From a virus (taxonomy: Duplodnaviria > Caudoviricetes), in IMG/VR virus record IMGVR_UViG_3300033121_001118, positions 40 through 64,039 of that record: a DNA stretch of 64,000 nt, one strand, 5' to 3'. The number at the start of each line of letters is the position of its first letter. Position 1 is the first letter of the stretch. Position numbers and translations under genes: made by a program. Below, in pieces: positions 1 through 64,000 of this stretch. Below the pieces are notes generated by a model. The model was not told the DNA's origin. It did not search any database and worked only from the letters and a program-made list of their open reading frames with translations.

Positions 1-53
1 GCCGATTCAAGCGGCGGCAACGTCGGCATCATGATGGCGCCCGATTCGCAGTT
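1..53. repeat. Terminal direct repeat (copy 1), circular-assembly overlap
   Basis: Identical to 63948-64000 (GCCGATTCAAGCGGCGGC...TTCGCAGTT); reading frame is continuous across the join. Confidence 0.95.
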
Positions 54-8356: not shown

Positions 8357-8418
8357 CCTCTTAATGATAACGGACCAAGATAAAGGCCCGATTAAGGCGA
8401 GATTAGAGGACGATTAGA
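8357..8418 (-). promoter_or_regulatory. Phased-repeat promoter, copy 1
   Basis: -10 TATCAT (8364-8369); GAT(T/A)A units at 8379, 8390, 8401, 8412. Confidence 0.8.
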
Positions 8419-9591: not shown

Positions 9592-9656
9592 CCTCTTAAT
9601 TATAGCGTCCCAAGCTTAGAGGCCTATTAAGACGAGATTAGAGGACGTTAAGACTT
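9592..9656 (-). promoter_or_regulatory. Phased-repeat promoter, copy 2
   Basis: -10 TATAAT (9599-9604); units at 9614, 9625, 9636, 9647. Confidence 0.75.
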
Positions 9657-10349
9657 CTCGTTCTGTGGGATGATGGTCATCATCTTGGGAGGCTCCTCGT
9701 ACCACTCCACACCTGGGAAGGAGGTGAAGGGCATGATGAAGCGATCCTCGCTCACACGTGAAAGACGCGGGATCTGATCTATGATCGTCGTCGGGACGTA
9801 CCAGCCTGGGCCTTCCCAGACGATCTCACGGAGCTCACGGTACACACGCGACTCCGCGGAAGACGTTGACGTCTCCCAACAGGTCACCGCGACCTGATGG
9901 ATGTTGTGAGGCATCCGCTGAAGGATCATCTCCGCAGCCAAGCGTGAGAGGTTCTCAGCGGTCGTGACCACGCCTAGTGGGATGATCTTGCTGACGTCGG
10001 AAAGACCCAGCAGCTCCGAGACGCAGATCAAGCCCTTGTTCTCCTCCATAGGTGGCATCTCGAGCGACCCTTGGAACAGCTCGTTGACTGTCAGCGCGGT
10101 GTGAAGGTTGCGGACCTGGATCGGGTTGTAGTGAACCAGCAAGGCGTGATCCCACTTCCCGATCGTGTGGGCCATCGCAGCCTTCAGGTCCCCGAAGTCG
10201 ATCAAGAAGTTGGTCGCGGGGTTGACGACGCCTACGACTGTCACCACGAACTTGTAGTTGTGACCGTGGAGATGCTGGCACTTGCCGCTGTGAAACGGCA
10301 GCCAGTGAGCTGCGGAGAGTTCCATCTCCTTGGTGATGCTTACTGCCAT
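9648..10349 (-). CDS. queD: 6-carboxy-5,6,7,8-tetrahydropterin synthase with C-terminal extension
   Basis: SAAHWLP...CQHLHGHNY, IDFGDLK, DHALL, TTAENL, WETSTS motifs. Confidence 0.92.
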   Translation of the reverse strand: MAVSITKEMELSAAHWLPFHSGKCQHLHGHNYKFVVTVVGVVNPATNFLIDFGDLKAAMAHTIGKWDHALLVHYNPIQVRNLHTALTVNELFQGSLEMPPMEENKGLICVSELLGLSDVSKIIPLGVVTTAENLSRLAAEMILQRMPHNIHQVAVTCWETSTSSAESRVYRELREIVWEGPGWYVPTTIIDQIPRLSRVSEDRFIMPFTSFPGVEWYEEPPKMMTIIPQNEKS

Positions 10350-10444
10350 ATTTGAAAGCTCCTCATAACGAGATTGATGTCTGTGAGTAGCAGGGCGAAG
10401 AAAGCTACGACCAACAACAAGACGAAAATATGAACGACTCTCAT
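10340..10444 (-). CDS. 34-aa single-TM peptide (not in ORF track)
   Basis: MRVVHIFVLLLVVAFFALLLTDINLVMRSFQIWQ; ATGA overlap with upstream gene. Confidence 0.5.
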   Translation of the reverse strand: MRVVHIFVLLLVVAFFALLLTDINLVMRSFQIWQ

Positions 10445-10746
10445 GGCCAGTCATTGTAGGCGAGATAGCCGTTTCCCTGCCCATCGAGCAGTTCGACTGC
10501 GTTGATGCCGTCTACTTCGTCTGCGATCCTCTTCGCGATCAAGCTGGAGTGGCACTTGTCGACCAACTCTCGGGCGATGGCTGCTGCTTCCTGCTGTGCC
10601 GCAACCAAGACTGCTGTGGCCACATCCGAGCCAATATACGCTTCCGGCAGACGAATCCACAACCGCAAGACGTACGTGAAGTACTTGCCGGGGATCTCCG
10701 ACCGTCGCATTCCCTCGTAGATTCGACCTCGATCTTCTTCTGGCAT
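10441..10746 (-). CDS. Hypothetical protein in deazaguanine cluster
   Basis: AGAGG RBS, coupled to neighbours; C-terminus loosely resembles a T-fold end. Confidence 0.65.
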   Translation of the reverse strand: MPEEDRGRIYEGMRRSEIPGKYFTYVLRLWIRLPEAYIGSDVATAVLVAAQQEAAAIARELVDKCHSSLIAKRIADEVDGINAVELLDGQGNGYLAYNDWP

Positions 10747-10797: not shown

Positions 10798-11385
10798 TCA
10801 CAGGCTAAGCAATGACATCAGTTCAGCACGTGTCTCGGGTTCGGTCATGAAGCAACCCCGGAGTGCTGAGGTCGTGGTCGTGGAGCCGTGTGCCTTGACG
10901 CCTCGGATCGTCATGCACGTATGCTCGGCCGTGATGATCACCGCGACCCCACGAGGCTCGAGCTTCTCCATCAGGAAGTCGGCAGTCCGAGCCCCGATGT
11001 TCTCCTGGACGTTCGGTCCCTTCGCGAACATCCCCAGAGCCCGTGGTAGCTTCGACAGGCCGGCCAGCTTCTGGTCGGGGATGTAGGCGATCGTCGCCTT
11101 CCCCGTGAACGGGGCGAGATGATGTGCACAGGTGGACTCGAAGCCGATATCCCGGACGATGACGATTCCGGGATCTCCTTCGACGTCGAAGGTCGTGAAC
11201 TTCCACGGCTTGTCGAAGAACAACTCCCGATACATCCCGACCACACGATGCGGAGTGCCCTTCATGTGAGGGCTGTTGATGTCGACGCCTAGTGCGGTCA
11301 GCATCGACGATAGATGAGCTTCGGCTCGAGCGATGTCAATTGCATCGAGCTTGTCAGGGTTCAAACAGACGGTCTCCGTGGTCAT
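10798..11385 (-). CDS. folE: GTP cyclohydrolase I
   Basis: TPHRV, FESTCAHHLAPF, GLSKL, VQE, AEHTCMTIRGV motifs. Confidence 0.95.
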   Translation of the reverse strand: MTTETVCLNPDKLDAIDIARAEAHLSSMLTALGVDINSPHMKGTPHRVVGMYRELFFDKPWKFTTFDVEGDPGIVIVRDIGFESTCAHHLAPFTGKATIAYIPDQKLAGLSKLPRALGMFAKGPNVQENIGARTADFLMEKLEPRGVAVIITAEHTCMTIRGVKAHGSTTTTSALRGCFMTEPETRAELMSLLSL

Positions 11386-11621
11386 ACTCTCTCCAGACGT
11401 TTCGTGACTTGATTCCACCGGAACCCGACGTTCCGGATGGTGATGAAGTCGTCTCCCAAGCCTGTCGGGAACGGCAAGTAGCGAATGATCTCGAGGATCC
11501 TGTCGGGACGATGAACGACCATCGATCTCAAAGTTTGATCTAGAGCGTCAGGGTCCTGACGACAGACCGCATCGCGAATCAACGACTCTTCGAGGACGTT
11601 CGGGGCGAGTTCGTCGTACAT
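11382..11621 (-). CDS. Hypothetical protein
   Basis: Overlapping start/stop with queE and folE. Confidence 0.6.
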   Translation of the reverse strand: MYDELAPNVLEESLIRDAVCRQDPDALDQTLRSMVVHRPDRILEIIRYLPFPTGLGDDFITIRNVGFRWNQVTKRLERV

Positions 11622-12421
11622 TAGACCCCCCGACGACGCCCGTAGATCAAGGCGTGAAGCTGAGGCAGGATCCGGAAGCGGTACTGCTTCCCGATGTCCA
11701 TCAGGTCTTCGAAGTGGAAGTGCTCGGTGATCGTCTCCTGGAGCTCACGAAGATCGTTCAGGATCGTACCGCGCATGATCTCGTCGGACTGGCCAGTGTC
11801 GACCGGCGTACACACCTGGAAGATCACGTCCACCATCCTCGACGGTTCTGCGCCCTTGAGCTGCTTCATCAACTGCTCGTTCACGAACCCGAGGTCCCCG
11901 CTGTTGCCGATGACGAACTTCAGCTGTACGTCGTGACCCATCCCCGTAGTGTACTCCACCCAAGTCTTCAGGTTGGGGAAGGGCTTGGTCGTCTTCGATG
12001 ACGGGAGCTTCGGCGATAGTGACCACAGCATGCCCCCGGGGTGGAAGTTGAGGGGTGCAGATCCGTCTACGCCCATGCCCGACGTCTCGACCGTCACGTG
12101 ATAGTGACGCCTCTGGAGTCCACGGATGAACTCCATCAAGAGCGGCATCGGATGCTCTAACGGCTCGCCACCCGTCACCACCACGTGACGATGTGTCGTC
12201 TTCGACATGACCTCGTTGATCAACGCGATCGGGGTGTACTCCGTGCCTTGAGCGGCCTTCCAGGAGTACTTCGTATCACACCACTCACAGCCGACTGTAC
12301 AGCCGGTCAATCGGACGAAGGTCGAGGGCACGCCAACGAGGGTGCCTTCGCCTTGCACTGCGGGATAGAGTTCGATGACCTTCAGATGAGCGCCATCGCT
12401 TACATCGACTGCTGTCTTCAT
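11621..12421 (-). CDS. queE: 7-carboxy-7-deazaguanine synthase (radical SAM)
   Basis: VQGEG, FVRLTGCTVGCEWCDT (CxxxCxxC), VTGGEP, VETSG, SPKL, PQLH. Confidence 0.95.
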   Translation of the reverse strand: MKTAVDVSDGAHLKVIELYPAVQGEGTLVGVPSTFVRLTGCTVGCEWCDTKYSWKAAQGTEYTPIALINEVMSKTTHRHVVVTGGEPLEHPMPLLMEFIRGLQRRHYHVTVETSGMGVDGSAPLNFHPGGMLWSLSPKLPSSKTTKPFPNLKTWVEYTTGMGHDVQLKFVIGNSGDLGFVNEQLMKQLKGAEPSRMVDVIFQVCTPVDTGQSDEIMRGTILNDLRELQETITEHFHFEDLMDIGKQYRFRILPQLHALIYGRRRGV

Positions 12422-12427
12422 ATGACC

Positions 12428-12485
12428 ACCTCCTTCACTAAGTGTAACGGATCAAGATTAGAGACGGATTAAGCGATGACTAGTC
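12428..12485 (-). promoter_or_regulatory. Phased-repeat promoter, copy 3 (before queE)
   Basis: -10 TACACT (12441-12446); units at 12456, 12467, 12478. Confidence 0.7.
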
Positions 12486-14867
12486 TTTCATTTGAGACCA
12501 GCGTTGTCCGACCGCAATCTCGGCCTTCAAGGGGACGTCGAACCCGTCGATCGGCGGCGTCTCCATGATACGGTGAACGACCTCTTTCGTCTCCTCGATG
12601 CAGTCGTCCCGAACAAGGAGCATGATCGAGTCGTGCACCGAGGACACTACGTAAGCCTTGTCGGGGTCGAGAAGATCGACCAGACGGATGATGGCCGTCA
12701 AAGTGCAGTCTGAAGCGAACGACTGAATCGGGGTGTTCACCGACTTCCGTTCCATCGAGCCCCGAGACCGATTGTCCACGTAGGGGAATCGACGACGACG
12801 CCCTGTCGGAGTCTCCACGTACAAGTTCGCATTCACGAAGCGATGTTGAGCTTTGATGTACTCGACCAGTCCCGGGAAGGCGTCGAAGAAGTCCTTCTGA
12901 AGAGCGTCCGCCTCCTTCTCGGTCATCGCCTTGCCCGTCGTCTTGACGATGTAAGCTGCCTCCATGCCTTCGAGGAGGCCTCGAGCGGATCGACCGTACA
13001 GCAAGCCGAAGTCGAGGTACTTGGCTAGGTAGCGTTCGAAGCTCGTGATCTCTTCCATCGGCTTCTTGAACATCAACGAAGCAACCCATCGATGGATGTC
13101 ACGTCCCGTTCGGAAGGCCTCGATCAGCGTATCGTCTCGGGAGAACCAGGCTGCTACACGAAGCTCCAGCTGCGAGTAGTCACAGTTGAACAGCTTCCAG
13201 CCTTCTGGCGCCACGAACGCATGCTTGATCTTCGGCCCCATGATGGTCGGGATGTTCTGCAGATTGGGGTTGCGGCAGCTGAGACGGCCGGTGTCCGTTC
13301 CGTGGAGCTGGAAGTCGGGATGGATGCGATCGTCAGGCCCGAGTCGATTCAAGATGCCGACGATGTACGTCTGGAGCACCTTGCTGATCTGTCGATACTC
13401 GAGAAGCTTCGAGAAGAAGGCCTTGCACGCTTCCGGCCACTTCCCCAGCTCGATCTCAACTTGCAAGATGTCCTTCTCAAACGACGGCGGTGTGAAGTGC
13501 CAGACCTTGGCCATCTCCCGGACTTGCTTGGGGGAGGACGGGAGGAAGTCGTCGATGACACCCCCAGACGCCTCTCGAGCCATCTGCTTCAACTCGTCAG
13601 CGATCGCCTGGACCTGCTGTTCCGTCTCGACCTTCAGCTCCTCTAGGTACAGACGGTCTATCGGGAAGCCTCGAAGTTCGATCTGCGAGAACGCTAGAGC
13701 CCCGGGAGTCAAGAGGTTCTCGATCAAGGGCATCAGCTTCGGCGACTCGGCGTCGAGCTCTGACGACAGCTCCCAGTAGAGCTTCAACGTACAGATGACG
13801 TCCATCGCTAGGTAGGCGTAGAACTGTCCCCAATCTCGGGCGTCTTCGGGAAGAGCGTAGAACTCATCGAAGTCCCAGTGGTAGTCGGGAATGTCGAAGC
13901 GAAGCCTCGACTGGTCCTTCAAGCCCGCGGTGAAGTAGGCCTGACCCTTCTGCTCCTGAGGGATGCCACGTTCGTCTTGAGCGTAGACCATCAGCATCGA
14001 GTCGACCGCACGTTTCAGCTTGTAAGACGTCTGCTCGGCCCATACGCGGAGGAACGACACGTCGAACTTGATGTTGTGAAAGACGACTCGTCCCGTGAAC
14101 TGCGAGAGGGAGGTCAAGATCGACCACTTCATGATCTCGACCATCTCTCTCGGGAAGATGATCCCGATCTCCCCGTAGCCCTCGATACTCACCCCGAACC
14201 CGACAGCGATGATCTTGTCGTGGAGGGGATCCGTCCCGGTCGTCTCGAGGTCGCAGGAGATGACGGATGCGGACTTCATCGCCTCGAGCAAGTTCGAACC
14301 CTGCACCTTGTCTTCGACGATCAGGAACTCGGGGACGAGACGTTCAAGAGGCTGAGATCGATAGGCAAGCTTCTGAAGATCGTACGAGAAGTCCCGAAAC
14401 AGGTCGGGGTTGCGAAGGATGGCTGCGGGGTGATACGTCGGCACTGTGAAGGCGCCGTTGTACATTCGCCCGAGCCCCCTCGTTCGGGAGACCGACTGCT
14501 TCGGGCCGAGGAGAGATAGAGCGGTCGAGCCGAGTAGAAGAATCTTCTGAGGCTTGACGTGATCGAGCTCGGTCACCAACCGGTCGTGACAGCAATTGAT
14601 CGCTTCCGTCGATGGCGTAGCGTTGTCTTCAGGGTGACAAAGAACCGTGTTCGTGATGTAGACGAAGTTCGGATCGATCCCGACCGAGCGGAGAGAAGCT
14701 CGGAGGAGCTTCCCCGACGGCCCGACGAACGGGACGCCATCTCTCGCTTCGGTCTGGCCAGGTGCTTCACCGATCACGACCACACTAGCATTGGTCGGGC
14801 CGGAAGGTCTCGTCCCCGGGCGATCCCGGAGTGGACACTTCTCGCACCCAGCGTAGCCGGGAATCAT
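12480..14867 (-). CDS. polA: Family A DNA polymerase with N-terminal family-4 uracil-DNA glycosylase domain and 3'-5' exonuclease
   Basis: CxxC...GEAPG...HPAAILR (UDG); CDLETTG, HNIKFD (exo); TGRLS, DYSQLELR, KYLDFGLLYG, VHDS (pol). Confidence 0.93.
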   Translation of the reverse strand: MIPGYAGCEKCPLRDRPGTRPSGPTNASVVVIGEAPGQTEARDGVPFVGPSGKLLRASLRSVGIDPNFVYITNTVLCHPEDNATPSTEAINCCHDRLVTELDHVKPQKILLLGSTALSLLGPKQSVSRTRGLGRMYNGAFTVPTYHPAAILRNPDLFRDFSYDLQKLAYRSQPLERLVPEFLIVEDKVQGSNLLEAMKSASVISCDLETTGTDPLHDKIIAVGFGVSIEGYGEIGIIFPREMVEIMKWSILTSLSQFTGRVVFHNIKFDVSFLRVWAEQTSYKLKRAVDSMLMVYAQDERGIPQEQKGQAYFTAGLKDQSRLRFDIPDYHWDFDEFYALPEDARDWGQFYAYLAMDVICTLKLYWELSSELDAESPKLMPLIENLLTPGALAFSQIELRGFPIDRLYLEELKVETEQQVQAIADELKQMAREASGGVIDDFLPSSPKQVREMAKVWHFTPPSFEKDILQVEIELGKWPEACKAFFSKLLEYRQISKVLQTYIVGILNRLGPDDRIHPDFQLHGTDTGRLSCRNPNLQNIPTIMGPKIKHAFVAPEGWKLFNCDYSQLELRVAAWFSRDDTLIEAFRTGRDIHRWVASLMFKKPMEEITSFERYLAKYLDFGLLYGRSARGLLEGMEAAYIVKTTGKAMTEKEADALQKDFFDAFPGLVEYIKAQHRFVNANLYVETPTGRRRRFPYVDNRSRGSMERKSVNTPIQSFASDCTLTAIIRLVDLLDPDKAYVVSSVHDSIMLLVRDDCIEETKEVVHRIMETPPIDGFDVPLKAEIAVGQRWSQMKD

Positions 14868-15697
14868 ACTGTCTCTCCACACAAGCTTCGATAGACACGA
14901 ATGTTCGTTCGGAGGAGATCGTCGAACTCGGTGGGGACGGCCTGGTTGAAGAAGTCCGGCGGACGCTTCGGGTACTCGGCATTCAGGTCCTTGGAGAGGT
15001 CGATCCCGTACATCGCGAAGGTGAACGGGCGAGCCGAGTCAGTCGATCGGATGCGATGGTCGAACCGACACGAGATCTCTTCGAGGATCGTCAACGGCTT
15101 CGGCCACCCGAGAAGATGAACTTCGGCGTTCAGCCACTGCGCTCGAGGCATGACATGATCGCGGAGAAAGCCGAGAAGGAAATTGTCGCACGGCCACCAC
15201 AGATCGTTGTAGTCCTTCGAGATACCGATCGTGAAGTTGTTGTAGACTTCGACATCGTCCGACCACAGACGGGCCATCGCCACCATCTCGGTCAAGCACC
15301 GTTGAAGGTCTTCCGGGGTCTTGCCTTGCGGGACGATCATGAACTTGGGAAGGGACGGACGAAGATCGATCTCTCGGGACACCCGAATCATCGTCTCGAC
15401 GGTCTCGAGAGACCGACGACAGCCTTCGATGGTAGCGTCGGCATCGAACAGCGTGTCCGGGAGAACGACTTCAGAAGCCCCGACCTGAGAAGCCTGGACG
15501 AGGAGACGTTCGATCCTCTCCCCGGCCTTCGTCTCGTGTGCGGAGTTGTCCAGAATGAGGTAGGTGCCTCGCTGCCGCTCCTGTCGATAGAACTCGCGAT
15601 GAGCTGGATCGACTAGGTTGTGGCTCAGCATCAAGTGGTAGGGTTGTCCCGTCGACATAGCGAGGTGAGGTGTCGTTGGGATGATTACGGATCTCAT
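14864..15697 (-). CDS. dpdA: Divergent TGT-fold protein, putative DNA 7-deazaguanine transglycosylase (DpdA-like)
   Basis: LILDNSAHE, VLPD, IVPQG, VHLLG, STDSARP resemble TGT/DpdA barrel motifs; embedded in Que cluster. Confidence 0.65.
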   Translation of the reverse strand: MRSVIIPTTPHLAMSTGQPYHLMLSHNLVDPAHREFYRQERQRGTYLILDNSAHETKAGERIERLLVQASQVGASEVVLPDTLFDADATIEGCRRSLETVETMIRVSREIDLRPSLPKFMIVPQGKTPEDLQRCLTEMVAMARLWSDDVEVYNNFTIGISKDYNDLWWPCDNFLLGFLRDHVMPRAQWLNAEVHLLGWPKPLTILEEISCRFDHRIRSTDSARPFTFAMYGIDLSKDLNAEYPKRPPDFFNQAVPTEFDDLLRTNIRVYRSLCGETV

Positions 15698-15699
15698 AC

Positions 15700-15758
15700 T
15701 CTTAGTATATCCTCTTTGCCTTAGAACGACCTTAAGGGAAGACTAGCGTCTGATTAGG
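15700..15758 (-). promoter_or_regulatory. Phased-repeat promoter, copy 4 (before dpdA-like)
   Basis: -10 TATACT (15704-15709); units at 15719, 15730, 15741, 15752. Confidence 0.65.
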
Positions 15759-16484
15759 AACGCGTCCCTCATGGTGCACTTTGATCAGACGATCGATGAT
15801 AGTTTCGATACGCTCGAACGCCGGTAGCAGATGGAGAATCTCGGCCCACTCCTGAAGGCGAATGAACAGCTTGATGTTCTCCTCGATATCGGGTTTGTCG
15901 ACGGTCAGGAACTCGCATTCGGGAGCCGGGTGATATCGCCACGACCGTGACATCCCCTGCTTCGTGATTCGAACGGTCCGACGCTCGTGACGAACTTGCT
16001 CGGTCACTCGCATGTTGTAGGACGTCGCACAACCAAGAGGTGAGCCGCTCTGCCACAGATCGCAGCCTAGGCCACCGCCGGGGCGAATCGGCTTCAAGAA
16101 GGTGCAGTACGGCGAGCCATCTGTCTCCCGAGGTTGATGAGGCGGGCCTCGACGCTTGCTCTTCGACATGAAGAGAACCTTCTGACCGTTGACATCGACC
16201 ACCCTCGTGTGGTCGAACAGCTCTTGCTTCTCGTCGGGCATCTTGGTCCACGCCGACTCTTCGACCAAGTAGTCGAGAGTGACGGACAGGACTGCACAGC
16301 AGACAAAGCAACCGTCGACGCACGTGAACTGACGGAAGAACGAGTTCGTGATTTCGACGGGGAGGCGACCCTCCCCGTCAGTCACGAGCTTGCCGTCCAC
16401 ACGTACTTCGCGATCACCCAGGAGCGACAGCCACCCGATCATCCTGGGCAGCGAATCGAGAACGAGGGGATCGACGACTGACAT
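15732..16484 (-). CDS. Cysteine-cluster protein (YkgJ/CxxCxxCC-like, putative Fe-S or Zn binding)
   Basis: FTCVDGCFVCC ... YCTFLK ... GCDLWQSGSPLGC. Confidence 0.7.
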   Translation of the reverse strand: MSVVDPLVLDSLPRMIGWLSLLGDREVRVDGKLVTDGEGRLPVEITNSFFRQFTCVDGCFVCCAVLSVTLDYLVEESAWTKMPDEKQELFDHTRVVDVNGQKVLFMSKSKRRGPPHQPRETDGSPYCTFLKPIRPGGGLGCDLWQSGSPLGCATSYNMRVTEQVRHERRTVRITKQGMSRSWRYHPAPECEFLTVDKPDIEENIKLFIRLQEWAEILHLLPAFERIETIIDRLIKVHHEGRVPNQTLVFP

Positions 16485-16485
16485 C

Positions 16486-17229
16486 TCAGCCCTCCTTCGC
16501 CTTCAACAGCTCGAGGGCGTAAGCATAGCCCGCCGTGTCGTAGACCGTTGGATCGGGGACCCCGGCGAGTCGGAAAGCTTCGATCCGCTCGACGCAAGTC
16601 CCACATCGACCGCAGTGAACGTCCCCGCCCTTGTAGCACGACCACGTGAGATGGTACGGGACGTCGAGTGCGTGGCCGATCGATACGATCGCTGCCTTCG
16701 AGTCGTTCTTGAACGGAGCGTAGAGGCCGACAGGCTCGTCGTTTCCGATCTGAAGCGCTTCCTCCACCGCGTGAAGAAACTCGGGGCGACAGTCGGGATA
16801 GATGAAGTGGTCGCCTGCATGAGCGGCAACGACGACGGCACCGCCTCCCTTCGACACGACCAAACCGGCAGCGATCGAGAGGAGGATCATGTTCCGGTTC
16901 GGCACGATCGTCTTCTTCATGTTGTCCTCGGCGTAGTGGCCATCGGGGACGTCCTGGCCGTAGAGAAGAGACGACGAGGCGTTGTTAGACTGAAACAGCT
17001 GTCCCACCGACGTCAAGTCCAGCACGTAGTGGGGGACGTTGAAGAACTCGGCTACGCGGTGAGCCGCTCGAAGCTCCCGAGCGTGACGCTGGCCGTAGTT
17101 GACAGACAGCGCAGTGATGTTCCGGAATCGGTTCTGGGCTACGGCGAGAGCGGTTGTGGAGTCGAGCCCTCCTGACAGGAGGACGACTGCGTTCTGAGCG
17201 TTGGGATTGAAGTTCATTTCGAGCTCCAT
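16486..17229 (-). CDS. queC: 7-cyano-7-deazaguanine (preQ0) synthase
   Basis: LLSGGLDSTT, VPNRN, YPDCRPEF, TWSCY...CGRCGTC. Confidence 0.96.
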   Translation of the reverse strand: MELEMNFNPNAQNAVVLLSGGLDSTTALAVAQNRFRNITALSVNYGQRHARELRAAHRVAEFFNVPHYVLDLTSVGQLFQSNNASSSLLYGQDVPDGHYAEDNMKKTIVPNRNMILLSIAAGLVVSKGGGAVVVAAHAGDHFIYPDCRPEFLHAVEEALQIGNDEPVGLYAPFKNDSKAAIVSIGHALDVPYHLTWSCYKGGDVHCGRCGTCVERIEAFRLAGVPDPTVYDTAGYAYALELLKAKEG

Positions 17230-17621
17230 CGTGCGACGACGTCGGTCGTTACTCCACCCCGAACCTTCTGGGTGAGATGAACGATGACTTCGAGAGGGTC
17301 CAGTGCTTCTGCGATCTCGGCTGCGATCTTGTCCGCCAGGGTTTCAGCGAAGATCCCCACGTTACGATACGAGGCGAGGTACAGCTTGAACGTCTTGGTC
17401 TCGACGATCCACTTGTACGGACGGTACGAGACTTCGACCTTGTAGAAGTCGGGCTGCCCTGTGATCGGGCAGTGGGCGATCAACTCTTCCGAGCTCAACG
17501 TCACCATCGCAACGTTCGTCGGAGCTTCGATCCGATCGAAGCCCTCGAACTCGGTGACACGATTCCCCAAGGCCAGCTCGGGTGAGGGGTCGGTGATACT
17601 GCCTAGAACGATATCTGCCAT
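17214..17621 (-). CDS. queF: preQ0 reductase (NADPH-dependent nitrile reductase)
   Basis: CPITGQPDF catalytic Cys/Asp and ETKTFKLYL, close to the QueF E(S/L)K(S/A)hK(L/Y)(Y/F) motif; RGG. Confidence 0.85.
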   Translation of the reverse strand: MADIVLGSITDPSPELALGNRVTEFEGFDRIEAPTNVAMVTLSSEELIAHCPITGQPDFYKVEVSYRPYKWIVETKTFKLYLASYRNVGIFAETLADKIAAEIAEALDPLEVIVHLTQKVRGGVTTDVVARWSSK

Positions 17622-34530: not shown

Positions 34531-35088
34531 TTACACCCTCCCTTCGGTCTTCCCTAAACGTGATGGCGGACGACGTCCACTAGCTTTAGCTCTCTCGCTC
34601 ATCTGAGCTCTGACTTCTGGCGAACGGGTCTTTCCACGAAGCTTCTCCACTCGCTTTTGGATAGTCTCTGGACTCTGCTTCCTCCCGGAATTAGCCCTAC
34701 GTGACATCTCGATATGAGCAGCCTTTCGGTCCTCAGTCCAAGATGCACTCAGCTTCTCCCGATGTTCTTTGGAATGACGAGTCCCTCGAGCACTAGGCGG
34801 CTTCCCCGCGATGGGGTTGACGTTATACAGCATTCCCGAGTGCCAACTAGTATCCAGCCAAACTTGTTCACGGTCGAGGAGATGCGATTCCTCGCATTGC
34901 TCCACGATCGTGAACTCGAAGGCTTCAGCTCCGTATTTCGCCCAAGCGTTGGCGAGAGGCGGATTGAAGTGATCTCCTACATTCAGGCTCTTCCGATGCA
35001 TCAACCAACGAGACTCGATGTTGACGGAGCTCCCGATGTAGCGCCTCCCCGAAGCTTTGTGGACGATTGCGTAAATGCCTGATGTCAT
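34531..35088 (-). CDS. GIY-YIG homing endonuclease with NUMOD3-like repeats
   Basis: SGIYAI...RYIGSS...RWLMH, REQVWLD, YNV, HSKEHREKLS. Confidence 0.9.
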   Translation of the reverse strand: MTSGIYAIVHKASGRRYIGSSVNIESRWLMHRKSLNVGDHFNPPLANAWAKYGAEAFEFTIVEQCEESHLLDREQVWLDTSWHSGMLYNVNPIAGKPPSARGTRHSKEHREKLSASWTEDRKAAHIEMSRRANSGRKQSPETIQKRVEKLRGKTRSPEVRAQMSERAKASGRRPPSRLGKTEGRV

Positions 35089-56553: not shown

Positions 56554-56846
56554 CACTCGCACTAGGTCGGCTAGACGTAGACCAGATGCTCGAGGAGATC
56601 ACGAGTCGAGAGCTCTCCGAGTGGATGGCCTACAACGAGATTGAACCCTTCGGGGAAGATCGAGAGGACTTGAGAATGGGCATCATCGCATCGACGATAG
56701 CGAACGTCAATCGGGCATCCGGCAAGAAGCCGTACAAGCCCCAAGACTTCATGCCTGTCTTCAAGGTCGGGACCGAATCGGAAGCGGAAGCCGGACGTCG
56801 GCTAGCTGAACGGGCCCGTCGAGCGTTGGGAGGTAGGCGACGATGA
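56508..56846 (+). CDS. -1 frameshift extension of tail chaperone (GT-like)
   Basis: Slippery A AAA AAC at 56508-56514; -1 frame reads KKLERRPVRRFAFKLALALG...ELSEWMAY. Confidence 0.85.
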   Translation, partial: KKLERRPVRRFAFKLALALGRLDVDQMLEEITSRELSEWMAYNEIEPFGEDREDLRMGIIASTIANVNRASGKKPYKPQDFMPVFKVGTESEAEAGRRLAERARRALGGRRR

Positions 56847-59800
56847 GTACAGTAGGCACGATCGCCAAGATGAACGTGATGCTCGGGATGGACAACTCGG
56901 GCTTCACGTCAGGAGTAGAGCAGGCGAAAGCCTCGGCCGAGTCTCTTAGTCAGAAGATGAAGGCCGTCGGCACGATGATGTCGGTCGCAGTGACGACCCC
57001 GATCGTAGGGGTTGCCGCTGCGGCGATCAAGTCCGCTGGCGACTTCGAACAGTCGATGAACGTCATGGCCCAAGTCTCGGGAGCTACGGCCGATCAGATG
57101 GCCACGCTTCAGGCACAGGCCCTGAACTTGGGTGCCGTAACGAGCTTCTCGGCAGGCGAGGCAGCCGACGCACAGTTGGAGCTAGCCAAGGCTGGTCTCT
57201 CGGTCAACGACGTCATCGCCGCGACCCCTGGTGTCTTGGACATGGCTGCTGCTGGCGGGCTCGGTCTAGCACAGTCGGCCGAGATCGCAGCGAATGCCTT
57301 GAACTCGTTCAACCTGCCCGCTACAGAGGTCGGGACGGTAGCCAACATGCTCGCAGCTGCTGCTAATGCTTCGAGCGTGGACGTCACAGACCTAGCCGAT
57401 GCGATGAAGATGTCCGGCTCGGTCTTCGCTGCTAACAAGCAACCGATGGACGACATGGTCACGGCCTTGGCGATGTTGGGTAACGCCGGCATCAAGGGGT
57501 CGGACGCTGGTACGGGCTTGAAGACGATGCTCTTGAGCTTGGCTGCCCCGACCAAGGAGGCGTCGGGAGAGCTGTCGAAGATGGGCTTGGAGGTGTACAA
57601 CGCCGACGGCTCGATGAGAGGGTTCCAGGCCATCTTGGCCGATCTCGCAACCTCGACGGCGAAGATGTCCGACTCACAACGAAACGCTGCGTTGAGTACG
57701 ATCTTCGGCTCGGACGCCATTCGCGTGGCTACGATCCTAGCCCGTGACTATGGTGACTCGTGGGACGGGCTTAGTGATGCCCTCGGGGACGGAAGTGCTG
57801 CAGCGAACGTAGCGAATTCGAGGATGAAGGGCGTTGCCGGTGCGATCGAGTACCTCAAGGGCTCGGTCGACTCGTTCTTGATCGGGGCCGCTCTCCCGTA
57901 CTTGAACACGATCGGTGACTGGATTCGACAGGGTGCCGACCTCTTGACGATGATCGGGAGCTTGCCGAAGCCGACTCTCGACATGGCGGTGGCCTTCGCA
58001 GCTGTCTTGGCCGCAGCAGGTCCTCTCATGGTCGCGTTGAGTGGTCTGGGCGCCGTCATCGGCTTTCTTACTGCCCCGATCGGGCTGGTCATCATCGCCG
58101 TCGGAGCCTTAGTTGCCGTCTTCACGACCGACTTCATGGGCATCCGAACGATGGTGGTCGATCTTTCGAAGGCCCTGTGGGATATGTCGGGGATCGACCT
58201 CAATGCCATCACGAGTGCCTTCTCGGCCTTCGGGCAGTACATTCAAGCCGTCCTCGAGGACGGTGACTACCTAAATGACTGGATCACGCATCTGCCCGAT
58301 TCACTCCAGCCGGCAGTCATCGCCCTCGGACAATTCATCTCGATCGTCACGGGATCGGGAACGGTGTGGGAGAAGCTAGCTCAGCTCCGGGACATGTTCG
58401 GGGAGATGATCACGAGCGTCACCCAGATCGACTGGGGTGGCTTGTGGGAGTCCTTCCAGACGTGGGTCGACACGTGGGCGAAGAACGTAGCCGACAGCTT
58501 GTCGACCTTCAACTGGGAGGGGACGGTTGGAGCAGCTACTTCGACCTTCGACTCCCTGAAGGCAGCCGTCGTCGGTGCGGTGTCCAGTATAGACTGGGTC
58601 GGTGCGATCTCGTCAGCCGGTGAGATCTACGCTAACTACGTGGCCTTGGTCGTGGACAAGCTGAAGACGATCGACTGGGTTGGGGCGTTGTCTGCTCTCG
58701 GCGACATCTACGCTGCCTATTGGGGAGCGGTCATCGGCGCTCTCCAGACGATCGATTGGGGCGGGCACTTGACGGCCGCGGGCGACTTCCTGATAGGTCT
58801 CTGGAGTGCTGTCCTAGCGAAGATCCAGACGATCAACTGGGGCGGGATTATCGCCGGAGCAGGCGACTTCCTCGCTTCTCTGAAGACGGGAGTCGTGACA
58901 GCGATCCAGACGATCAACTGGGGAGCTGCCATGCAGACGGGGAAGGATTGGCTCGAGACACTCCGTCAGATGGTCGTCAACAAGATCACGTTGATCGACT
59001 GGGTAGGAGCTTTGACAGCGGTCGGGGACTTCCTCGGTGGGTTGAAGAACAAGGTCGTCGCCGAGATCCAAGCTATCGATTGGGCAGGGGCCCTCGAAGC
59101 TACGACCGATCTCTTCAAGCCCCTCGTCGACACAGTGACGACGAAGATCCAAGGGGTCGATTGGGGTGGCGGTGCTGTCTCTCTCGGGGACATCTTCACG
59201 GGCATGAGGGATACGATGCTCGCTGAGATGACGACCTCGTTGTCGGAGTTCAGCTTCACGGACGCCATCACGAAGTTCAACACCAACCTAACGACGGCTA
59301 TCAACGACGTCGATTGGGCGGTCGTCGGCCAGGCCATTCGGGACTCGTTCGTAGCGTTCATCACGGCACCGGCCTTCCTGGCTCTGTGGACGATCGATAG
59401 CAAGAATTGGTCGAGCTTTGCTACGACGGTCAAGACCTCGATCTCAACTATCGACTGGGGCGAGGTCGGAGCTAGCTTCTACCCGTTGAGAGACGCTATC
59501 GTCAAAGCACTCGGTGAGTTCGCTTCGGGCTTGACAAAGGGCTTCTCGACGCCTGAGTGGCTAGCGGACTTTCTCGCTTGGAAGTGGCCGGACCCGACGA
59601 AGCTGCTCGAGTGGAAGTGGCCCGATCTGACCGACTTGCTCAACTGGGACTGGCCGTCCTTGCCATCTTGGGAGTGGCCCGAGATCGGGATGCCGGATTG
59701 GGTCAACAACCTCTTGAGCTGGAACCCGTTCGGTGGCCCGAAGGCCGAGGGTGGAGCTGTGAAGGCGGGGACGACGTACACGGTGGGGGAGCAAGGCACC

Positions 59801-59986
59801 GAGCTCTTCACTCCGAATCGATCGGGAACGATCATCCCTAGTCACGAGCTGAATCAGTGGATGGCGGATCACGTTCAAGGCGATACCTCGAGCGGGCCGA
59901 TGATCGGAGTGGCCAACGTCTACAATCAGCTCGACGTCCTGGATGTCGCTTGTCAGGTCGCGACCTATCAGAAGAGGTGGAAGTAG
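56843..59986 (+). CDS. Tape measure protein
   Basis: TP901-like core (LAKAG, GIKGSDAGT), periodic IDW repeats. Confidence 0.93.
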   Translation: MSTVGTIAKMNVMLGMDNSGFTSGVEQAKASAESLSQKMKAVGTMMSVAVTTPIVGVAAAAIKSAGDFEQSMNVMAQVSGATADQMATLQAQALNLGAVTSFSAGEAADAQLELAKAGLSVNDVIAATPGVLDMAAAGGLGLAQSAEIAANALNSFNLPATEVGTVANMLAAAANASSVDVTDLADAMKMSGSVFAANKQPMDDMVTALAMLGNAGIKGSDAGTGLKTMLLSLAAPTKEASGELSKMGLEVYNADGSMRGFQAILADLATSTAKMSDSQRNAALSTIFGSDAIRVATILARDYGDSWDGLSDALGDGSAAANVANSRMKGVAGAIEYLKGSVDSFLIGAALPYLNTIGDWIRQGADLLTMIGSLPKPTLDMAVAFAAVLAAAGPLMVALSGLGAVIGFLTAPIGLVIIAVGALVAVFTTDFMGIRTMVVDLSKALWDMSGIDLNAITSAFSAFGQYIQAVLEDGDYLNDWITHLPDSLQPAVIALGQFISIVTGSGTVWEKLAQLRDMFGEMITSVTQIDWGGLWESFQTWVDTWAKNVADSLSTFNWEGTVGAATSTFDSLKAAVVGAVSSIDWVGAISSAGEIYANYVALVVDKLKTIDWVGALSALGDIYAAYWGAVIGALQTIDWGGHLTAAGDFLIGLWSAVLAKIQTINWGGIIAGAGDFLASLKTGVVTAIQTINWGAAMQTGKDWLETLRQMVVNKITLIDWVGALTAVGDFLGGLKNKVVAEIQAIDWAGALEATTDLFKPLVDTVTTKIQGVDWGGGAVSLGDIFTGMRDTMLAEMTTSLSEFSFTDAITKFNTNLTTAINDVDWAVVGQAIRDSFVAFITAPAFLALWTIDSKNWSSFATTVKTSISTIDWGEVGASFYPLRDAIVKALGEFASGLTKGFSTPEWLADFLAWKWPDPTKLLEWKWPDLTDLLNWDWPSLPSWEWPEIGMPDWVNNLLSWNPFGGPKAEGGAVKAGTTYTVGEQGTELFTPNRSGTIIPSHELNQWMADHVQGDTSSGPMIGVANVYNQLDVLDVACQVATYQKRWK

Positions 59987-63309: not shown

Positions 63310-64000
63310 CCGACACCATCACATCCCTCGCCCAACAGATTCGTCCCTTCTGGTTGAGGGATCTCGGGGCGTCTTCCCCGTTGCAGAATGGGGGCGGATC
63401 GGGCATGATCGCCCACGCGTTGAACGGGCCCTACCATACGGGGACGCTCGACCAATCTCAAGCTCCGTGGGCTGTCGATACGACGACCTTCACAGCCCAC
63501 ACGGGCAACCCGGATGCTCACCACACGAAGCTCCACGGGATCGTCGATACTGCTCATCACAGTGGCGCTGGTGGGCTTCAGTATCAGATCGTCGGCTTCC
63601 CGACCAATGGTGGGCTCGGGCTACTGACTCCTGCTTCGTCTCCCGGCGCGAATGCCATCGTCAAGACGGACGGGGCTAGCTCGGTCACGCTGGTCGACCT
63701 CACCGTCACGTCGGATCTCTTCATCGTAGGTGTTGCCGACTTCGGGACGAACACGATCTACGAGGACGCTAGCTACCTTCAAGTGACGGGAAGCAAGACA
63801 GTTCGATTCGGACAAGCCGTCGGCACGCCGAACTGGCAGATTGCTCTGAACGGCTCAGCCCAGTTTCACGGGACGGTAGACATCTCGAACGGTGGAGACC
63901 TGACCGTTGCCGGGAGTGGGAGTTACGCAGGGAATCAGGTGCTGTTCGCCGATTCAAGCGGCGGCAACGTCGGCATCATGATGGCGCCCGATTCGCAGTT
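63306..64000 (+). CDS. Tail fibre N-terminal part (continues at position 1)
   Basis: ATG overlaps upstream TGA; open frame MTDTITSLAQQIRPFW...FADSSGGNVGIMMAPDSQ through window end. Confidence 0.85.
   Translation, partial: MTDTITSLAQQIRPFWLRDLGASSPLQNGGGSGMIAHALNGPYHTGTLDQSQAPWAVDTTTFTAHTGNPDAHHTKLHGIVDTAHHSGAGGLQYQIVGFPTNGGLGLLTPASSPGANAIVKTDGASSVTLVDLTVTSDLFIVGVADFGTNTIYEDASYLQVTGSKTVRFGQAVGTPNWQIALNGSAQFHGTVDISNGGDLTVAGSGSYAGNQVLFADSSGGNVGIMMAPDSQ
63948..64000. repeat. Terminal direct repeat (copy 2)
   Basis: Identical to 1-53. Confidence 0.95.

Follow-up and report, generated by a model that had tools for sequence, protein, structure and literature searches.

A minimal DpdA3-subfamily protein linked to polA and to a preQ1 pathway in a metagenomic phage, and its probable role as a DNA transglycosylase

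We examined a window of 64,000 nucleotides (positions 40 to 64,039 of IMG/VR virus record IMGVR_UViG_3300033121_001118), which is nearly all of a complete 64,039-bp record with a G+C content of 58%, from a phage known solely as a metagenome contig. Our subject is a gene on the minus strand (14864..15697) that encodes P0001, a protein of 277 amino acids predicted to form a minimal barrel of the TGT fold and assigned below to the DpdA3 subfamily of 7-deazaguanine transglycosylases. A preliminary description of this DNA had read the gene as encoding a compact, DpdA-like enzyme with three recognizable motifs and no CxCxxC zinc site. The open reading frame (ORF) and its translation agree with this in every particular, with LILDNSAHE at residues 47-55 (15533..15559), HLLG at residues 194-197 (15107..15118), TDSARP at residues 219-224 (15026..15043), and five cysteines that form no CxCxxC, only one of which (C134) is invariant among 50 homologs and nearly so in a wider set. 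A further motif, SKDY (residues 160-163, 15209..15220), lies on strand 6. The start codon is right, because the N-terminus lines up with those of the homologs in the 50-sequence alignment. At its other end, the gene overlaps polA by the four nucleotides ATGA (14864..14867; TGA 14866-14864, ATG 14867-14865), as had been described and as the coordinates confirm, and the same 4-nt overlap recurs in a relative of 87% identity (L003). The gene stands in a leftward run of queF, queC, a gene for an eight-cysteine protein, dpdA3, polA, queE, a small ORF, folE, another small ORF, and queD.

The family to which P0001 belongs is large. Scans against Pfam and NCBIfam returned no match, and neither phmmer nor a hidden Markov model (HMM) built from the 50-sequence family alignment (A1) retrieved anything relevant among the sequences of the PDB. 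The TGT family PF01702 likewise matched neither P0001 (hmmscan) nor anything in a search of the phage genome; since it also matches nothing in phiST, CP220, 9g, CAjan, or HVTV-1, its absence does not discriminate. We found 147 full-length homologs of about 270 amino acids, all annotated as "hypothetical", and a profile search over 1.84 billion representative sequences yielded 4669 matches at E<=1e-3, 504 of them at E<=1e-30. With so many cluster representatives matching the profile, the motifs of P0001 are far beyond chance. The link to characterized subfamilies comes from Cui, Hutinet et al. (NAR 2023; PMC10516641), who defined DpdA3 operationally, as what psiBLAST from phiST reaches within three iterations, with CGPG_00065 of phiST as the prototype; this protein has a 98.8% HHpred probability to PF01702 (PMC10516641). 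P0001 matches CGPG_00065 by tblastn (E 1e-5) and the PHROG family of phiST, phrog_20335 (E 6.6e-7), and hhalign of A1 to the phiST protein extends over residues 1-257 of 259 (99.4% probability, E 9e-22), with 99.5% for the homolog in Weizmannia phage Youna2. The A1 HMM itself matches the proteins of phiST (8.4e-29), Youna2 (5e-29), and CP220 (1.7e-12), and nothing at E<=10 in the genomes of 9g (DpdA1), CAjan (DpdA2), and HVTV-1 (DpdA4). Because homology to phiST is detectable, P0001 is a DpdA3 by the published definition and, as judged from these comparisons, represents a distinct and large clade within that subfamily. A comparison of A1 with the single E. coli TGT sequence by hhalign gave a meaningless result and was discarded.

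The preliminary description had named structure prediction as a check, and the predicted fold is the one expected of a DpdA. An AlphaFold model computed on the 50-sequence alignment has eight strand–helix units that form a TGT-fold TIM barrel, with a predicted local distance difference test (pLDDT) of 94.6 and a predicted template-modeling score (pTM) of 0.92. In a Foldseek search against the PDB, all 50 matches shown were TGTs (best E 1e-6, probability 1.0). An independent all-against-all structural search (VIA) placed the archaeal enzyme arcTGT 1iq8 first (Z 16.2, 230 residues aligned, root-mean-square deviation 3.5), followed by the DNA preQ0 insertase DpdA 7ui4 (Z 15.6) and the bacterial TGT 3unt (Z 15.2). 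The best viral structural match is the uncharacterized phiST protein (E 6e-15, template-modeling scores 0.73/0.78). Together with the homology to DpdA3, this fold upholds the earlier view of P0001 as a compact DpdA-like enzyme that lacks the zinc site.

Across 39 diverse members of the family, including those of phiST, CP220, and Youna2 and the most divergent from the related contigs, just eight columns are invariant (L24, L49, D50, N51, D81, H194, G197, and D220), and none of the three aspartates is more than two residues from where a predicted strand ends (strands 3, 4, and 8, respectively). The bacterial DpdA (bDpdA) has three invariant active-site aspartates, D95 as general acid/base, D130 in base binding, and D256 as nucleophile (PMC10164549). 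The D50/D81/D220 pattern fits the three invariant active-site aspartates of TGT and bDpdA, with D220 as the proposed nucleophile and D50 as the proposed general acid/base, a role that by analogy would be that of Asp95 in bDpdA (PMC10164549); H54 occupies the +4 position, where it may stack on the base. The best match of the widened family profile among PDB sequences, weak as it is, is bDpdA itself, which also speaks for the assignment. These residue equivalences are well motivated but short of proof.

The genes around dpdA3 would supply the base. The phage encodes FolE (GTP cyclohydrolase I, 10798..11418), a QueD-like protein of the PTPS type (9648..10484), a QueE-like radical SAM protein (11621..12421), QueC (16486..17229), and QueF (17214..17621), all on the minus strand, and can therefore make preQ1 (7-aminomethyl-7-deazaguanine). 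The module is shared by 64 IMG/VR contigs, where the linkage of the family gene to que genes is strict. A search of the genome found no second TGT-like gene, and ARAGORN found no tRNA gene in the phage. Directly upstream of dpdA3 lies the gene for the eight-cysteine protein P0003 (15732..16484, minus strand), which is a homolog of DpdM from Vibrio phage VH7D, a validated preQ1 methyltransferase (PMC10516641). The P0003 family aligns to VH7D DpdM over 211 columns with about 26% identity (hhalign 99.2%, E 3e-19), the VH7D ORF having been picked by its cysteine positions, all of which are as published save one (49 by our count, 50 in the paper). Each of the eight cysteines of P0003 reaches at least 90% conservation among 18 homologs, and their order is the same in VH7D DpdM. 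Of the related contigs, roughly half have a DpdM homolog immediately upstream of dpdA3. In PMC10516641, the main text describes DpdM as accompanying DpdA1 or DpdA2, with very low modification levels, and does not describe a pairing of DpdA3 with DpdM. P0003 differs from VH7D DpdM in its partner, which is DpdA3 here and DpdA2, with very low modification, in VH7D.

The base that P0001 would prefer may be written in strand 6. In TGT, the equivalent strand-6 loop contacts the 7-substituent of preQ1, which makes D162 and Y163 of the SKDY motif candidate readers of the aminomethyl group. The motif is present in all 36 distinct relatives that have QueF on the same contig and in none of the six distinct relatives without it, a count not controlled for relatedness; the latter carry PKHF, PKAL, PQHL, GMGY, SKLA, and PKAV instead. 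In a quick tree, most of the QueF-less sequences are long, basal branches, and one of them (L060) falls inside a QueF-containing clade with modest support, which suggests at least two changes. SKDY is thus a candidate determinant of preQ1 specificity.

Downstream of dpdA3, polA (12480..14867, minus strand) encodes an N-terminal family-4 uracil-DNA glycosylase (UDG)-like domain, a 3'-5' exonuclease, and a family A polymerase. A GGAGA lies 6 nt upstream of its ATG, and the N-terminus that begins at the ATGA is conserved, with M1, C8, and C11 invariant in 27 relatives. The order of dpdA then polA on the same strand is kept in 60 of the 61 related contigs that hold both genes, and also in Youna2; the earliest start of polA lies no more than 60 nt from the dpdA stop in 41 contigs, and the 4-nt overlap is found in at least 13. 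The preliminary description had suggested coexpression with the polymerase, and both the overlap and the gene order, kept as it is in 60 of 61 contigs, support this. From such sequence features, dpdA3 is very probably cotranscribed and translationally coupled with polA. That description also had base exchange coupled to replication; a physical or kinetic coupling may exist, and synteny is what points to it. A complex prediction of P0001 with residues 170-795 of PolA, which leaves out the UDG domain, scored 0.00, below the threshold, and gives no verdict either way on physical contact. Roughly one in three related contigs has an insertion of 150-1400 nt at the dpdA3/polA junction (L008, L011, L015, L023, L039, and others), which suggests small mobile or accessory ORFs there. 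As a separate observation, the N-terminal ~160 amino acids of PolA, which are kept in most relatives, contain the GEAPG and HPAA motifs of a family-4 UDG-like domain, with three invariant cysteines (Cys8, Cys11, and Cys93) and a nearly invariant fourth (Cys77), a set that would suit a 4Fe-4S cluster.

Taken together, we consider it likely that P0001 is a DpdA3-subfamily 7-deazaguanine transglycosylase that puts preQ1 into the DNA of the phage in place of guanine. By the double displacement known from TGT and DpdA, D220 would attack C1' of deoxyguanosine and guanine would depart with the help of D50, while D81 and Q124 would read the edge of the base, and H54 and L196 would stack on it. Incoming preQ1 would then resolve the covalent intermediate to give dPreQ1 (the deoxynucleoside form of preQ1) in the phage DNA, and the neighboring DpdM homolog would probably methylate it, in part or completely, to mdPreQ1. 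The enzyme would be expressed along with polA, with translational coupling through the ATGA, would have DNA and not nucleotides as its substrate, and could replace guanine extensively, complete replacement having been reported for DpdA3 phages (PMC10516641). The purpose is most likely protection from host restriction.

Several observations weigh against this interpretation. In the structural search, generic TIM barrels begin at Z 13.9, compared with 16.2 at the top, which is a modest margin. When the profile was widened and run against 177,635 PDB sequences, the best match was bDpdA (7UI4) at a non-significant E of 0.17; in this weak alignment HLLG falls on HLLG and the D-x-x-x-P motif around D220 on the SIDS motif, whose aspartate would by position be D256 if the chain has a 20-residue tag. 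Comparison by hhalign with an alignment of 80 gammaproteobacterial TGT sequences is also non-significant (E 0.11 and 0.23); the result is colinear, with D81 opposite D143, QG opposite QG, HLLG opposite YLMG, and D220 opposite D264 of E. coli TGT, and serves as illustration only. The proposed equivalences come from such alignments and from positions at the ends of predicted strands. Moreover, the structural zinc site CXCX2CX22H is absent from P0001, in which no conserved cysteine follows strand 8, as are the insertions of TGT and bDpdA, so that P0001 may need another way of binding DNA. Finally, activity has yet to be demonstrated for any DpdA3 enzyme, the tests made in E. coli by the authors of the subfamily having failed (PMC10516641).

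The alternative that survives best retains the family assignment and moves the reaction to a stage before replication, where preQ1 would take the place of guanine in a free deoxynucleotide, which the coupled PolA would then incorporate. The close linkage of dpdA and polA described above, in Youna2 as in the metagenomic contigs, speaks for this, and P0001 is devoid of the zinc subdomain and insertions of its nucleic-acid-binding relatives. The published record also has features in its favor: 100% of G is replaced in DpdA3 phages, the ADG (7-amido-7-deazaguanine) nucleoside occurs in CP220-infected cells, and DpdA3 did not modify plasmids in E. coli (PMC10516641). On the other hand, the window encodes no small P-loop kinase, the Walker A motif occurring only in an AAA_24 protein, an FtsK-like protein, a primase-helicase, and the terminase, and no MazG, dNMP-kinase, or dGTPase domain was found among 40 proteins scanned. 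These absences lower the probability of a pre-replicative exchange, even though host enzymes could serve. In addition, DpdM, whose homolog is the neighbor here, was validated with DpdA2, which acts at the level of DNA (PMC10516641). We therefore regard exchange on free nucleotides as unlikely, though it is the foremost competitor of exchange in DNA by P0001.

It is less probable still that P0001 represents a truly separate DpdA subfamily, the unclassified one proposed in the preliminary description. The sequences are indeed far apart, with an identity to phiST of only 23-28%, and scores of the A1 HMM run from 200 to 340 bits within the clade, compared with 96 bits for phiST and 43 bits for CP220; in the quick tree, phiST falls outside the clade of P0001. 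But DpdA3 is defined by psiBLAST from phiST, and even plain tblastn already links the two proteins, a grouping to which the HMM matches and the full-length hhalign alignment lend further weight. P0001 also shares its motifs and invariant residues with phiST and CP220, along with the size, the gene context, and the lack of a zinc site. The claim of an unclassified subfamily is thus not sustained, and the clade groups with published DpdA3. Last, P0001 might perform no exchange of the kind proposed, either as a TGT that acts on tRNA only or as an enzyme of deazapurine metabolism with a TIM barrel of other origin. In favor are the generic barrels only about 2 Z units below the TGT group and the missing Pfam match. 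This reading is nonetheless very improbable: the phage encodes no tRNA, the protein lacks the zinc and tRNA-binding parts, its best structural and profile matches are all TGT or DpdA, the linkage of the gene to que genes is strict in 64 contigs, and the genome holds no other transglycosylase for which its preQ1 could serve.

The expression of this region may involve a repeated element of 63 nt, of which the window holds 12 strong copies, every one on the minus strand and together spanning 8357-39755 (starts at 8357, 9592, 12434, 19024, 23938, 26364, 27463, 28921, 30792, 32090, 37176, and 39693). Each has three TAATC-type boxes at 11-12 nt spacing, followed by TAnnCTTG and TTATCATTAAGAGG, and the 3' end is an AAGAGG motif like a ribosome-binding site, with an ATG or GTG within a few bases in several copies. 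One strong copy (12434..12496) separates polA and queE. A repeat-type copy had also been reported directly upstream of dpdA3. We trained a position weight matrix (PWM) on the 12 strong copies and scanned both strands (background mean -96.6, standard deviation 16.8 bits); the stretch at 15697..15759, on the minus strand, scores 10.7 bits and is the sole further site above 5 bits, compared with 58-98 bits for the training copies. This 13th copy is thus real and, as reported, lies partly inside the neighboring gene, with its distal half (15735-15759) within the 3' end of the upstream gene (stop at 15732-15734), but it is degenerate, having kept the boxes without the CTTG...CCGTTA core. Scanning for the sigma-70 consensus gave no promoter in the vicinity of dpdA3 or at the 13th copy. 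The element resembles a phage promoter that carries binding sites for a regulator, and the sigma-70 consensus does not fit it.

Comparison with known systems helps in placing the locus. The DpdA3 proteins of phiST (YP_007673446.1) and CP220 share with P0001 a length of about 260-280 amino acids, a TGT-like barrel that lacks the zinc site, and one motif per strand, with LDN[SG], PD, QG, HxLG, and D[ST] motifs in common; their genes also lie among 7-deazaguanine synthesis genes and near a polymerase. They differ in the base made. phiST stops at CDG/DG (7-carboxy-7-deazaguanine and 7-deazaguanine) and has neither QueC nor QueF, and CP220 makes ADG, whereas the present phage has the full preQ1 route and a DpdM homolog. 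The strand-6 motif differs too, since phiST has SKLA and CP220 has SGDY in place of SKDY. In Youna2, the homolog (UKM63149.1, annotated only as hypothetical) is directly upstream of DNA polymerase A and adjoins FolE, QueE, QueD, and QueC, but QueF and DpdM are missing, and strand 6 has PKAV as its motif. A DpdA3 phage that carries DpdN, compared here by gene content, likewise combines a complete preQ1 pathway with one enzyme that tailors the aminomethyl group, which is the formyltransferase DpdN in that phage and the DpdM-like methyltransferase in ours. Flavobacterium phage immuto_2-6A did not appear in a tblastn search with QueF. More distant are bDpdA of S. Montevideo (7UI4) and TGT and arcTGT (3UNT, 1IQ8), which have the same barrel (Z 15-16) and three invariant aspartates, to which D50, D81, and D220 may correspond, but are larger (375-580 amino acids) and possess, in addition to the CXCX2CX22H zinc site, large insertions or further domains. 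bDpdA also needs the DpdB ATPase, of which there is none here.

Some further features of the genome stand apart from the dpdA3 locus. An exact 53-bp direct repeat is found at the ends of the window (1-53 and 63948-64000), which reflects either a genome of ~63,947 bp, circular or circularly permuted, whose ends overlap in the assembly, or a pair of short terminal repeats. On the plus strand, at least six tandem repeats of 81 nt (27 amino acids) occupy 58566-59115 inside an ORF of 1047 amino acids (56843-59986), which is probably a tail or tape-measure-type protein. A gene resembling homing endonucleases with GIY-YIG and NUMOD3 domains lies at 34531-35088 on the minus strand, within the replication region.

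DpdA3 is the least understood of the DpdA subfamilies; it is credited with 100% guanine replacement, and its substrate may be DNA or nucleotides. DpdA3 itself being already known, what we add is modest, and consists of the pairing with DpdM, the covariation of SKDY with QueF, and a quantified linkage to PolA. The clade offers a compact, confidently folded representative with the catalytic candidates D50, D81, and D220, along with a testable specificity motif, SKDY, that goes with the presence of QueF, and a link to PolA that is close to universal. A bolder picture, in which this minimal DpdA3 works together with the polymerase, at the nucleotide level or at the fork, the genome is fully substituted with dPreQ1 or mdPreQ1, and SKDY is a switch for preQ1 specificity, is speculative and in our judgment improbable as a whole; if true, cooperation between DpdA3 and the polymerase would explain the complete replacement of G in DpdA3 phages. 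The locus also leads to the prediction that DpdM can pair with a high-efficiency DpdA3, and if so, DNA fully substituted with methylated preQ1 should exist.

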